From Escherichia coli (GTDB lineage Bacteria > Pseudomonadota > Gammaproteobacteria > Enterobacterales > Enterobacteriaceae), in NCBI RefSeq assembly GCF_024223415.1, contig NZ_CP100500.1: a DNA stretch of 64,000 nt; one strand, 5' to 3'. Position 1 is the stretch's first letter. The number at the start of each line of letters is the position of its first letter. The notes beneath the pieces were generated by a model, which saw nothing but the letters and a program-made list of their open reading frames with translations, had not been told where the DNA came from and made no database searches. Shown in pieces: positions 360 through 2,660 of the stretch. The position numbers and the translations under genes are program-made.

Positions 360-386
360 GCAAAAAAAGCCGGATTTCTCCGGCCT
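360..386 (-). terminator. Intrinsic terminator ending the capsid operon
   Basis: Hairpin gccggatttctccggc at 369..384 followed on the minus strand by a 7-nt T run, directly after the stop of the 137-aa gene. Confidence 0.55.
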
Positions 387-390
387 TGTC

Positions 391-804
391 TCAGATGGTT
401 TTCAGTATGCGATCGATGTTGCCGTCATCGACCGGGTTTCTGCCATCGTATGCCATGCCAGCTGATACGGCTTTCGGGCTGTGCATGTCCATAAAGTTTT
501 CAAAGGCTGAAGTAAGCTGTGGTGCAACCTTCGGGCGTTCCTGCTCTATGGTCATGCTAAGGATGCTTTTAGCCGTACCAACATCGATACAAGGCACGTT
601 AGCCATTGCACGTAACAGCGGCTGGTAGTCGTCAGATTCATGAAGCGCCATAATCGCATCAGCGCGCTGCTTGTCCTGTTCTTCCAGTTTGTTTAGTCGG
701 TGTATGGCCTCGTAGGTTGATAAACCTCTGTCAGCCATTGCCCGCGCTTCGGCTTTAAATTTACTCGCCAGCGGTAGCGTCATGATACTTTCATTCGTTG
801 CCAT
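391..804 (-). CDS. Hypothetical protein (137 aa), last gene of capsid operon
   Basis: ORF closely following the gpD-like gene on the same strand; protein-like composition; no family recognised from memory. Confidence 0.45.
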   Translation of the reverse strand: MATNESIMTLPLASKFKAEARAMADRGLSTYEAIHRLNKLEEQDKQRADAIMALHESDDYQPLLRAMANVPCIDVGTAKSILSMTIEQERPKVAPQLTSAFENFMDMHSPKAVSAGMAYDGRNPVDDGNIDRILKTI

Positions 805-816
805 CGTTCCCCCTGC

Positions 817-1152
817 TTATCGGGCCAGCGGCTGAACGGATACGCCGGAACCCGCAAAGGCGGCGCATTTTTTCGCATCGGTGTCGACGCTGTCAGGCCA
901 GTTAACGGCGGCAATATTGAATATCCCCGTTTTGTAACACTGTGCTGATTTCTGCTTTGACGTGTCCACGGGGTGCGAAGTCAGATAAACAGCTTTGCCA
1001 GATTCCTGACCATCCCACGCCTTAAACTCGCCATTGTCTGCCAGCATCAGCGGGGTAAATTCCTGAATAACGCCAGCATCAGCGGCAAAATGTACCAGCG
1101 TCGTGGATACCTGCTGGCTGCCTGCAAATAACTCAATATATGGAGCGTCCAT
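817..1152 (-). CDS. Head decoration protein, lambda gpD-like (111 aa)
   Basis: Length and motifs (TPLMLxD, KxWDG, KxAFAG) match my recollection of lambda gpD; adjacent to the gpE-like gene. Confidence 0.7.
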   Translation of the reverse strand: MDAPYIELFAGSQQVSTTLVHFAADAGVIQEFTPLMLADNGEFKAWDGQESGKAVYLTSHPVDTSKQKSAQCYKTGIFNIAAVNWPDSVDTDAKKCAAFAGSGVSVQPLAR

Positions 1153-1163
1153 AGAATCCCCCG

Positions 1164-2219
1164 TTAAGCAATTTTGACGGTAACAAATTTGCGAATATCT
1201 GCCGGTACCGGCTGCGGTGCGCTGTGCGTCTGCACGTACTCAATCGCCGGATCGCCGTCCTCAATCCAGTTTTTCGGGTAGTACATGTTTTGCGTTGCGC
1301 CCGTTCTTACCGCTTCCTGATCCATAATCGCACCATATGCCACAAGCCCTTTATTGTTGGTGTTACCCAGGACAAGCAAATCAGGCTCAAGGAAATATTT
1401 TTCGGTGCCGTCGCTGTCAGTGTATTTGCCGGAATAGACGATAAGGGCCAGATCACCAAGATAGCCTTTAAAGCTCACCACTTCGCCCAGGTTTTTACAG
1501 GCCAGCTCGGCGGCGGATTCTGAGCCACGGTAAAGATCGTACAGTTCACGGAATTTTTTAAAGCTGCGTAATGTGCGCCATGCCTCACCGCCCATAATCA
1601 TGACGTTGGCGGGGCAACCTGCCTGATCAGCATAAAGCTCGATGTCATAGATTGGGTCGTGCATGTCTTTATCCTGCTGGGACCATTTTTTACCACTGGC
1701 CTGCTGTATGATGCAGTTTTCCGGTATTTTCCAGTCGATTTCATAGCGTTCTATGCCTTCGCCCTCAATGATGTTTTTTCCGGTCGTTACCGCATTCACC
1801 GCCAGCCATTCCACGCGCGCCTTAATGGCGTTTATCTGGCGGCGCATGTTGCCAGTAATCAGGCGCATACGGCGGTAAGTTGGATCGTTAAGCTGTGCCG
1901 GATCTTCTCCAGCCATGCGCATGATGGTCTTTGTTGGATCGATTTCGTGCTTTGGCTTCATGTAGCCTGGTTTAATCGTGCTGGTTTCGTACCCTTTATC
2001 GCGCTGGACCTGACTACCCACCATAGGAGAACAGAACGCTGACATCGTAACCTCTTCAATGTCCAGGGTGTCCAGCATGATGTTTTGGGTGTTGAAGGTC
2101 GCCACGTTCGGGAAAAACAGCGTGGTAAACAGCGGACTAAATTTAAATTCCGAAATATCCCCGCGATTCAGGTACGCGAAAAGCTGGTTAGTTGTAAGTG
2201 CCGTTGCTTTGCCTGTCAT
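1164..2219 (-). CDS. Major capsid protein, lambda gpE-like (351 aa)
   Basis: Translation aligns along its length with remembered lambda gpE: FKFxPLF, PGYxKPKHE, EDPxxLxDPxYRRxR, YKGxxGDxAxxVYSG, VLGNT, YPKNW, GDPA, QSAP, EFVxV. Confidence 0.85.
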   Translation of the reverse strand: MTGKATALTTNQLFAYLNRGDISEFKFSPLFTTLFFPNVATFNTQNIMLDTLDIEEVTMSAFCSPMVGSQVQRDKGYETSTIKPGYMKPKHEIDPTKTIMRMAGEDPAQLNDPTYRRMRLITGNMRRQINAIKARVEWLAVNAVTTGKNIIEGEGIERYEIDWKIPENCIIQQASGKKWSQQDKDMHDPIYDIELYADQAGCPANVMIMGGEAWRTLRSFKKFRELYDLYRGSESAAELACKNLGEVVSFKGYLGDLALIVYSGKYTDSDGTEKYFLEPDLLVLGNTNNKGLVAYGAIMDQEAVRTGATQNMYYPKNWIEDGDPAIEYVQTHSAPQPVPADIRKFVTVKIA

Positions 2220-2425
2220 TATTCACCTCCGTGAACCTGATTGATACCCAGCGCCGCACGTAAATAGGTACGCACCTGCCAGCCTGTTGACGGCTCAACC
2301 ATCGCCAGCGGATCAAGTCCTGCCGCAATGCCTGCTTTTACATTCTGCTGGTGGCGTTCCTTGAGCGCCTCCACGATGTCGGGGCTTATGTAGACCGTCA
2401 CCCCGCCTTTTTTCTCTTCTGCCAT
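2219..2425 (-). CDS. Hypothetical protein (68 aa), first gene of capsid operon
   Basis: Its TAA stop shares one base with the capsid ATG (TAATG), suggesting translational coupling; no family recognised. Confidence 0.4.
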   Translation of the reverse strand: MAEEKKGGVTVYISPDIVEALKERHQQNVKAGIAAGLDPLAMVEPSTGWQVRTYLRAALGINQVHGGE

Positions 2426-2460
2426 AGTCAGAAATTCCTCTTTGACTTAAAAAATCATAA

Positions 2461-2476
2461 CTGGATGTTCATCCAG
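2461..2476. promoter_or_regulatory. Perfect inverted repeat CTGGATG-TT-CATCCAG in capsid-operon leader (candidate operator)
   Basis: Exact 7-2-7 palindrome in the AT-rich gap between the upstream terminators and the capsid operon start. Confidence 0.3.
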
Positions 2477-2592
2477 TCCTGATTATAATCATGATTGCAT
2501 TTTGCGCAACAATATTGAGTTACGTTGCAAATTATGAAATGATTATCCCGATCATGTGTGCCAGTGCACCATAAAAAACCTCGTATACAAAA

Positions 2593-2660
2593 GCCCGATA
2601 AGCCCCCTGTGACCTTATCGGGCTTTTTTTAGGCGTAAAAAAGCCGGATTGCTCCGGCTT
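2593..2660 (-). terminator. Tandem intrinsic terminators downstream of FinO-like gene
   Basis: Two GC hairpins (2593..2623 and 2643..2658), each followed on the minus strand by a T-rich run; the first also reads as a terminator on the + strand. Confidence 0.5.

Follow-up and report, generated by a model that had tools for sequence, protein, structure and literature searches.

Why does one short GC-rich hairpin stand twice, in almost identical form, within a single mobile element of the 64-kb stretch of Escherichia coli DNA analyzed here (the window)? A first-pass annotation had reported a near-identical terminator module of about 30 bp after a 137-aa gene and again after a FinO-like gene, and had read this reuse as a hint that the element was assembled from modules.

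Two copies of a terminator-like hairpin in a phage satellite

The repeat was confirmed as described. Copy 1 (window 363-392, AAAAAAGCCGGATTTCTCCGGCCTTGTCTC) and copy 2 (2637-2666, AAAAAAGCCGGATTGCTCCGGCTTCGTCTC) are identical at 27/30 positions and lie behind the 137-aa gene and the ProQ/FinO-family gene (Pfam PF04352), respectively. A degenerate pattern of the hairpin repeat gave exactly two matches in the window, namely these two copies, and none of 100 dinucleotide-preserving shuffles contained any match, indicating that the pair stands up to shuffled controls. An exhaustive scan of the 64 kb for directly repeated 30-mers that agree at 27 or more positions returned, besides copy 1 and copy 2, REP elements at 59.9-63.9 kb and one pair of paralogous genes at 39-43 kb; the remaining ~53 kb of the window, which is chromosome, held no further copy of the hairpin. 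The ungapped similarity of the two copies ends at the borders of the 30-nt unit. The extra 8-nt GAGAC flank that they share is not significant alone, and GAGAC could be common to both by chance or as a trait of cos-adjacent hairpins. For the flanks beyond the hairpin, the observed gapped alignment score was reached in 819/5000 shuffles and is not significant, so that a longer upstream homology, in which the FinO 3′ UTR would be left over from the end of the 137-aa gene, was not supported.

The host element is a 10.5-kb PICI (phage satellite) of the EcCICFT073 type at tRNA-Pro, as seen from the tRNA-Pro gene (10420-10496), the gene content, the phage-like cos and 93% identity to the CFT073 capsid cassette (window 283-2659). 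This PICI family has been described (PMC10111431), and further background on PICIs is available (PMC6739421). Gene identities were taken from Pfam and from the RefSeq annotation of an identical island. The features around the two copies are as follows.

183..359, minus strand: lambda-type cos site, with cosQ-like GGGTCCTTTCCGG at 359-347, cosN GGGCGTCGACCT at 329-318 and a cosB-like part to ~183
362..392, minus strand: copy 1, with flank GAGACAAG at 392-385, GCCGGA-GAAA-TCCGGC at 384-369 and T7 at 368-362
393..2636, minus strand: capsid cassette between the two copies, containing hp2, a promoter region and four ORFs
391..804, minus strand: 137-aa ORF, no Pfam family
817-1152, minus strand: lambda-D-type head decoration protein of the capsid cassette (Pfam PF03864/PF02924 for the E/D pair)
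1164-2219, minus strand: lambda-E-type major capsid protein of the capsid cassette (same Pfam pair)
2219-2425, minus strand: 68-aa ORF of the capsid cassette
2589..2630, no strand assigned: hp2, a second hairpin with a 10-bp stem (GCCCGATAAG/CTTATCGGGC) that is flanked by A4 and T7, one on each side
2637..2666, minus strand: copy 2, with flank GAGACGAA at 2666-2659, GCCGGA-GCAA-TCCGGC at 2658-2643 and T6 at 2642-2637
2684..3268, minus strand: ProQ/FinO-family gene (PF04352, E=1.3e-26; 194 aa in RefSeq), the last gene before copy 2
3348..3668, minus strand: PerC-family regulator gene, which in most related islands directly precedes the hairpin, instead of FinO

The island shares with EcCICFT073 the order int, alpA-type regulator, primase/helicase, DUF4222, ssb, perC, 68-aa ORF, E-type capsid, D-type decoration, 137-aa ORF and cos, and both hairpins occupy the same two positions in CFT073. 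However, EcCICFT073 sits near phoQ, and the window island differs from it in its RepA-type helicase, in the extra ProQ/FinO gene between perC and the hairpin, and in having only a rearranged remnant of the Rpp gene. The ProQ/FinO protein is identical in another island, L247 (WP_029400542.1). A possible start of this ORF lies as far upstream as 3364.

The functional strand, which the first-pass annotation had left unstated, is the minus strand. Read in this direction, both copies follow the plan GAGAC-N3-GCCGGA-GNAA-TCCGGC-T6/7, that is, a 6-bp GC-rich stem closed by a GNRA tetraloop (GAAA or GCAA) and followed by a U6-7 run. The plus-strand reading of both copies has no T-run. Both are co-oriented with the gene upstream of them. 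The TGA of the 137-aa ORF (391-393) lies partly within copy 1, whose stem begins 6 nt past this stop and whose T-run ends 2 nt before cosQ, where the cos of the island starts. For copy 2, the flank begins 17 nt and the stem 25 nt past the TAA (2684-2686) of the ProQ/FinO gene. The core hairpin folds at -10.4 kcal/mol, or at -13.5 to -14.2 kcal/mol with three extra A-U/G-U pairs (9-bp stem), and the 46-nt contexts of the two copies fold at -19.1 and -14.8 kcal/mol (z ~ -3.5 against shuffles). Both this anatomy and the positions fit an intrinsic terminator, in line with the earlier terminator reading, and from their sequence the two copies are predicted to be Rho-independent terminators of minus-strand transcription.

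A generic terminator scan of the window listed neither copy, and explicit folding was therefore relied on. The scan probably failed because the stem is extended through A-U pairs into the first three T's of the T-run, leaving the tail rule unmet. A search of Rfam (E≤1, window 1-16000) gave no match at either copy, and a known RNA family was rejected on this ground. On the minus strand, copy 2 is immediately followed by hp2, with which the capsid cassette begins and which is predicted to make a tandem or bidirectional terminator. This second hairpin is conserved in CFT073 and in viral loci; its plus-strand fold reaches -19.3 kcal/mol, and the tandem of copy 2 and hp2 reaches -39.0 kcal/mol (z -5.97). 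The two copies share with GNRA-tetraloop intrinsic terminators the GC stem, the stable tetraloop, the U6-7 tail and a purine-rich 5′ flank able to pair with the U-tract. Compared with typical intrinsic terminators, the stem is short (6 bp, 9 with the A-U/G-U pairs), and mechanistically nothing appears unusual. This is ordinary terminator biology, and no new mechanism is revealed.

Distribution of the hairpin in the PICI family and beyond

The first-pass annotation had also suggested that related islands be searched for more copies, and the 22-nt core indeed recurs across the family, being found in at least 120 IMG/VR contigs with 1-3 copies each. The genes upstream of the 22-mer at these loci encode the 137-aa protein (56), PerC (43), SSB (30), an 84-aa protein (14), a 93-aa protein (12) and also FinO. 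In the family, the core stands after at least six unrelated genes and before at least four unrelated downstream modules; the modules on its 3′ side are two cos types, hp2, the leader of an 84-aa cassette and other sequences. An O157 capsid-forming PICI has PerC and the hairpin, then an HK97-type module. Because the viral loci were chosen by exact match to the hairpin, the apparent conservation is inflated, which anchor-based retrieval corrects partly. At the sites retrieved by anchors, every variant keeps the structure, with the loops GAAA, GCAA, GUAA, GAAG and GAAAA, and the sole stem change leads to a G-U pair.

Among the sampled PICI-like loci, all of those with 2-3 hairpin copies carry an E-type capsid gene (42/42), and those lacking this gene are all single-copy (42/42). 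When capsid-bearing loci cover both junctions, the hairpin is present at both in 41/49. The copy 1 hairpin is identical and in the same place in CFT073 and in 54/54 capsid-bearing viral loci. The loops differ by position across islands, the downstream copy having GAAA in 54/54 and the upstream copy mostly GCAA. That the loops are kept distinct indicates no ongoing exchange between the two copies, and concerted evolution or gene conversion between them was rejected on this ground.

Any match among 5426 E. coli genomes was found in 786 for the A loop and in 1250 for the C loop, and approximately three-quarters or more of complete E. coli genomes (~77-86%) have no detectable match to either loop variant. 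The island region is carried by about 1500 of the 5426 genomes. Every E. coli match whose context was examined lay inside a PICI-type satellite island. When copy 2 with its flank was compared with the E. coli pangenome by BLAST, copy-1-type sites were the next-best class. We propose that the two copies are paralogues within a single hairpin family, one that typifies the Gram-negative PICIs of the EcCICFT073 type.

The two copies and those of the family might also be independent inventions of an optimal small terminator, implying neither a shared origin nor module exchange. The exact 22-mer occurs at least 122 times in at least 120 contigs of Bacteroidota, Bacillota, diverse Proteobacteria and others, with unrelated, A-rich flanks, and of the matches listed, all in unrelated bacteria, 102/122 follow an ORF of 60 aa or more at a distance of no more than 100 nt. 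These genome-contig matches are without Enterobacterial PICIs and bear on convergence, not on the distribution within the family. Since the 22-mer arises independently as a terminator in distant phyla, the core alone is no proof of homology, and the similarity of the flanks outside the hairpin is not significant either. However, a general optimum should end core genes too, whereas most E. coli genomes lack the hairpin and its examined matches are all in PICI-type islands. Moreover, 2-3 copies within 2.5 kb were found in 42/102 PICI-like loci compared with 2 of the 120 genome contigs listed. The rank of the copy-1-type sites in the BLAST comparison, and homology tracts of different islands that meet exactly in the hairpin (see below), also speak against independent invention, which we regard as unlikely.

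The mosaic junction at copy 2

Alignment of the islands showed a four-way junction meeting at the hairpin, where FinO is joined to hp2, FinO to cos, the 137-aa gene to cos and PerC to hp2. Copy 2 aligns as a chimera with the crossover inside AGCCGGAG: the window sequence agrees with L249 as far as GCCGGAG, and from this motif onward with L014. L249 is of the capsid-less type with FinO beside cos, and L014 is of the capsid-bearing PerC type. The homology tracts, 391-2659 (98.9% to L014) and 2637-4296 (98% to L249), overlap only in the hairpin. L249 and two further islands, L247 and L250, have no capsid cassette, and in these FinO, the hairpin and cos are contiguous.

In a sample chosen by hairpin match, 62/521 HSP end-points fell in 2625-2674, the second-highest bin. 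Breakpoint hot spots of similar height were observed at the gene boundaries 3675-3699, 4275-4299 and 7625-7649, indicating that the hairpin is one mosaic junction among several. The alignments support the view that modules were swapped at the hairpin, which would make this locus a clean example of mosaic assembly. The modular assembly hinted at by the first-pass annotation is thus upheld by the four-way junction and the chimeric copy 2, with the qualification that the 22 nt of the core are generic and convergent in many phyla. A direct deletion product between copy 2 and copy 1, in which PerC and the hairpin would be followed by lambda-type cos, was not seen. Recent deletion between the two copies in the window island was also rejected as the origin of the capsid-less FinO islands, which have their own GUAG loop and T-run TTTATTTTTT (3/3).

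Mosaic junctions, short conserved boundary sequences and 'morons' are familiar from the lambdoid phages (the literature of Hendrix, Juhala and Clark). As in lambdoid mosaics, unrelated modules are joined here at gene boundaries with a short conserved sequence at the joints, and the 84-aa cassette and the capsid cassette resemble morons in being extra genes with their own terminator between operons. Unlike the lambdoid joints, the PICI joint is a terminator hairpin, and one 10-kb satellite can use it as many as three times. A literature search gave no mention of such a reused terminator joint for PICIs.

Proposed role of the hairpin and competing readings

It is likely that the two copies are terminators of one PICI hairpin family which serves as a module crossover point, and that the FinO patch was joined at copy 2. 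From the sequence, fold, positions, family distribution and breakpoints, we infer termination activity and a recombination mechanism as follows. The minus-strand transcript would fold as GCCGGA-GNRA-UCCGGC, three purines upstream would pair with the U's at the start of the tail, and polymerase would be released at the U6-7 tract. Copy 2, with hp2 as backup, would close the early operon (int ... ssb-perC-proQ/finO) and insulate the promoter of the capsid operon, while copy 1 would close the capsid operon 2 nt before cosQ. In the EcCICFT073-type family, a hairpin unit of ~22-30 nt would stand at the 3′ end of each operon and likewise of each accessory cassette. Because it is the only sequence common to otherwise unrelated modules, it could act as a short-homology crossover point, with helper-phage Red or host RecA as candidate recombination enzymes. 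In the window island, the PerC of a capsid-bearing backbone may have given way to the PerC and FinO patch of a capsid-less island with contiguous FinO, hairpin and cos, through one crossover in ssb and another inside the 5′ arm of the hairpin. This exchange would have put a GAGAC-type flank beside copy 2, raising the match to copy 1 from 21/22 to 27/30.

More tentatively, the hairpin might be a linker maintained so that PICI modules can be exchanged through short-homology recombination while the islands replicate together with lambdoid helpers that encode Red, which we consider doubtful. If it were so, the E-type capsid cassette, HK97-type capsid-forming modules, alternative cos types, FinO, PerC and 84-aa genes would all be exchangeable modules, and the unusual constancy of the hairpin would reflect selection for evolvability in addition to termination.

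The locus provides an example of phage-satellite assembly at nucleotide resolution, with the capsid cassette bounded by a terminator hairpin of 22-30 nt that probably marks where the early, capsid and packaging modules were joined. The hairpin could help to place the ends of operons and the limits of cassettes when Gram-negative PICIs are annotated. It could also be used for synthetic PICI design, with hairpins as natural cut-and-paste points and insulators, and for probing the minimum length of homology with which helper-phage recombinases can reshuffle satellites.

Conservation of the hairpin, along with its U-free, purine-rich 5′ flank and its U-tail, could instead stem from docking of the island ProQ/FinO protein, or of host ProQ, which would stabilize or regulate island mRNAs through their 3′ ends. 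FinO domains recognize intrinsic terminators whose hairpin carries four or more U's, and an A-rich 5′ flank is a feature of ProQ ligands (PMC7367173, PMC12001967). Both copies show these features (terminator hairpin, at least four U's and an A-rich, U-poor 5′ flank; criteria of PMC7367173), and copy 2 ends the mRNA of the FinO gene itself. However, such features are generic to many terminators, a FinO homologue was detected by tblastn in just 1/102 hairpin-bearing PICI-like loci, and CFT073 has both hairpin copies without a FinO gene. A link to the island FinO was rejected as the reason for hairpin conservation on the last two grounds. The likeness to ProQ/FinO-bound 3′ ends extends to the hairpin, the U-tail and the A-rich flank, but the hairpin has no association with island FinO genes, and the docking role is very improbable.

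A role at the DNA level, with the palindrome as a cosQ extension (packaging signal) or as the target of a hairpin-recognizing recombinase (attC- or REP/RAYT-like) inserting cassettes, is hardly credible. All cos-adjacent hairpins do lie 2-4 nt from cosQ, for two different cos types, and a 363-bp unit made up of the 84-aa gene and its hairpin behaves like a cassette that was inserted behind a further copy of the hairpin. On the other hand, the helper-type phage PhiR12_1 has cosQ/cosN without the hairpin, its homology stopping at window 365/366 in the T-run, so that the hairpin was rejected as a part of cos; copy 2 and many family copies are not adjacent to cos at all. The island annotation contains no integron integrase and no RAYT gene, only a tRNA-targeting tyrosine integrase, and the lack of an Rfam match at either copy also counts against this role. 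The 16-nt hairpin presumably lacks the GTTRRRY core sites of attC. Its GCCGGA/TCCGGC stem resembles the outer stem of E. coli REP, as compared with the REP copies in the window, and both are short GC-rich intergenic palindromes starting with GCCGGA and ending with TCCGGC. REP elements belong to the core chromosome, where they number hundreds of copies. The window REP copies are ~36 nt long with a different interior, whereas the PICI hairpin measures 16 nt and comes with a U-run; most E. coli genomes lack it, and it is found on mobile elements alone.

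The repeated hairpin and its island

A phage-inducible chromosomal island (PICI) integrated at tRNA-Pro(GGG) (10420-10496) takes up the left 10.5 kb of the window, and E. coli strains GF4 and 135 carry identical islands. Its layout is that of the model Gram-negative PICI EcCICFT073 (family background in PMC10111431 and PMC6739421), with capsid cassettes that are 93% identical. The minus strand carries all genes of the region.

Genes and hairpins of the island, in 5'-3' order on the minus strand
early genes, minus: integrase, AlpA-type regulator, 595-aa Icd-like ORF, DUF4222, RepA-type helicase
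early genes, continued, minus: 93-aa ORF, SSB, PerC, ProQ/FinO; then copy 2 and hp2
2637-2666, minus: copy 2 of the hairpin, stem starting 25 nt past the TAA of the ProQ/FinO gene (sequence)
2589-2630: hp2, a larger hairpin directly after copy 2 on the minus strand
capsid part, minus: 68-aa ORF, lambda-E-type capsid protein, lambda-D-type decoration protein, 137-aa ORF; then copy 1 and cos
362-392, minus: copy 1, stem starting 6 nt past the TGA of the 137-aa ORF, T7 run ending 2 nt before a lambda-type cosQ (sequence)

The first-pass annotation had described a terminator module of about 30 bp used twice. Two near-identical stretches do exist there: 363-392 (AAAAAAGCCGGATTTCTCCGGCCTTGTCTC) and 2637-2666 (AAAAAAGCCGGATTGCTCCGGCTTCGTCTC) agree at 27 of 30 positions. 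The degenerate pattern matched only these two in the window, with no copy in the remaining ~53 kb of chromosome and no match in 100 dinucleotide-preserving shuffles. Across all window diagonals, the only other direct 30-mer pairs to reach 27 matches came from REP elements (59.9-63.9 kb) and from a pair of paralogous genes (39-43 kb), both of which are true homologues.

The motif makes sense on the minus strand, where it reads GAGAC-N3-GCCGGA-GNAA-TCCGGC-T6/7 and folds into a 6-bp stem with a GNRA tetraloop (GAAA in copy 1, GCAA in copy 2); neither copy has a T-run on the plus strand. The core hairpin has an energy of -10.4 kcal/mol, or -13.5 and -14.2 kcal/mol with three upstream purines pairing the first U's, and the 46-nt contexts reach -19.1 and -14.8 kcal/mol (z about -3.5 versus shuffles). 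The gene before copy 2 is ProQ/FinO by Pfam (PF04352, 1.3e-26). Stem, GNRA loop, U-run and gene-end position fit the terminator reading, and copies 1 and 2 are putative paralogous intrinsic terminators of one PICI-family hairpin. Rfam showed no family at either copy. A generic terminator scanner flagged neither, probably because it extends the stem through part of the T-run.

Copy 2 and hp2 in tandem fold at -39 kcal/mol (z -6). The hp2 stem (GCCCGATAAG/CTTATCGGGC) has a better T-run (T7) on the plus strand, and is kept in CFT073 and more than 1000 E. coli genomes. It could terminate transcription in both directions, or mark where a short antisense RNA on the plus strand ends, next to the capsid-operon promoter. 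A perfect 12-nt palindrome at 2480-2491 (TGATTATAATCA) precedes the start of the 68-aa ORF by about 55 nt; it contains a minus-strand TATAAT and may serve the capsid operon as a -10 element or operator.

The hairpin in related islands

Scanning IMG/VR with the exact pattern GCCGGAGNAATCCGGCTTTTTT returned at least 120 contigs, and those listed were mostly PICI-like contigs of ~10 kb with one, two or three copies; related islands do hold further copies. Among the matches listed, the preceding ORF was the 137-aa gene (56), PerC (43), SSB (30), an 84-aa gene (14), a 93-aa gene (12) or a phage capsid gene (3), while FinO preceded the hairpin in this island only. The hairpin was followed by the lambda-type cos, a second cos type, hp2, the leader of the 84-aa cassette or others. 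Three-copy islands contain a 363-bp unit, made up of the 84-aa gene and one hairpin and resembling a phage 'moron', that is inserted after the PerC hairpin; it lies between that hairpin and hp2 in L007 (copies at 4049/6321/6684) and nine other viral loci. In a capsid-forming PICI of O157, an HK97-type head module follows PerC and the hairpin.

Because this sample was selected by exact match, sites were also retrieved anew through their flanking sequences. The loop following the 137-aa gene was GAAA in every case. Before hp2 it was GCAA, GUAA, GAAG, GAAA or GAAAA, and the sole stem change gave a G-U pair; all variation seen therefore preserves the hairpin structure. Hairpin copy number tracks the capsid cassette: among the sampled loci, the 42 with two or three copies all carry an E-type capsid gene, and the 42 PICI-like loci lacking that gene are all single-copy. 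A substitution-only search found the hairpin at both junctions in 41 of 49 capsid-bearing loci spanning them, and the other eight probably carry a pentaloop variant invisible to such a search.

ALTERNATIVES: convergence and rejected readings

The refuting possibility, that the likeness is confined to a generic hairpin, holds in part. The 22-mer also occurs in at least 120 contigs of species-representative genomes (Bacteroidota, Bacillota, many Proteobacteria and others) with unrelated, A-rich flanks, showing that the hairpin core can arise by convergence. In 102 of the 122 matches listed, an ORF of at least 60 aa ends no more than 100 nt upstream of the 22-mer, which lends independent support to terminator function. 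Of 5426 complete E. coli genomes, only 786 had any match with the A loop and 1250 with the C loop, and all those with context examined were in PICI-type satellite islands. Two to three copies within 2.5 kb occurred in 42 of 102 PICI-like loci versus 2 of 120 genome contigs (among the matches listed). Within the element family, common descent and exchange fit these data better than convergence does.

FinO-domain proteins bind U-tailed terminator hairpins, and the ligands of ProQ are A-rich on the 5' side (PMC7367173, PMC12001967), a description that both copies fit by sequence features. However, a FinO homologue was present in only 1 of 102 sampled hairpin-bearing PICI-like loci; the island protein therefore cannot account for hairpin conservation and was rejected as its cause. 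The hairpin was also rejected as a cos component because the cos of a helper-type phage lacks it. Mutual homogenisation of the two copies was rejected given the distinct loops at flank-retrieved sites. Ungapped likeness stops at the 30-mer edges, and homology of the extended flanks was not significant.

Mosaic junctions at the hairpin

CFT073 has hairpins at the same two positions, and its upstream one directly follows PerC, with the 5' flank CCACACA versus GAGACGAA in the window. The same FinO gene is found in three capsid-less islands, L247 (E. coli ECCNB12-2; identical protein, WP_029400542.1) and L249 and L250 (IMG/VR), where the GAGACGAA flank, the hairpin and cosQ follow directly. In alignment A1, the hairpin is the sole sequence common to FinO-hp2 and 137aa-cos (window), FinO-cos (L247) and PerC-hp2 (CFT073). 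By pairwise BLAST, the window matches L014, a capsid-bearing PerC island, at 98.9% over 391-2659 and 97.5% over 3686-7627, and L249 at 98% over 2637-4296; the only places shared by both sets of tracts are in ssb and the 23 nt of the hairpin. In a three-way alignment, copy 2 equals L249 up to AGCCGGAG and L014 from there on. The island thus appears to be an L014-like capsid-bearing backbone with PerC swapped for a PerC+FinO patch. The patch would have come from a capsid-less island, with one crossover in ssb and the other inside the 5' arm of the hairpin. Such a swap would have placed the GAGAC-type flank beside copy 2, which explains why the copies match at 27/30 here but at no more than 21/22 in CFT073.

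Across 128 related loci, 62 of the 521 end-points of homology to the window cluster at 2625-2674. Similar hot spots exist at other gene boundaries, which makes the hairpin one of several mosaic junctions. The hint of modular assembly in the first-pass annotation is upheld by the four configurations and by the tracts meeting at the hairpin, and these data support both hairpins as bracketing the capsid cassette and marking likely recombination joints. The pair reveals no new mechanism; it adds a well-documented case of two known phenomena, intrinsic termination and mosaic module exchange.

Several minor features were noted. L247 carries a full-length lambda-Nu1-like small terminase gene right after cos (6176-6760) in a capsid-less FinO island, so close relatives differ in their packaging modules as well. 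An Rpp/Nu1-like gene lies between two inverted cos sites in CFT073, and only a rearranged remnant is left in the window (28-113). The cos beside copy 1 (1-360) is phage-like through cosB (88.6% to phage PhiR12_1), and another cos-like copy, in inverted orientation, is found just beyond the window's left edge (L001 8764-8835). Gene order is ssb-perC-finO in the window (2684-3668) and ssb-finO-perC in other PICIs of E. coli that carry a ProQ/FinO gene (L003, L004). Region 2430-3364 has a DNA match in ~1565 of 5426 E. coli genomes, and matches within the gene itself are annotated ProQ/FinO. The 595-aa ORF (6455-8242) has no Pfam family at E<=0.01, and several small ORFs take its position in related islands. 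The interval separating the 93-aa gene from the RepA-type helicase gene holds two 46-nt direct repeats rich in CCCCACTTTT (4335-4380 and 4503-4548, 168 nt apart), which are probably the island's ori iterons.
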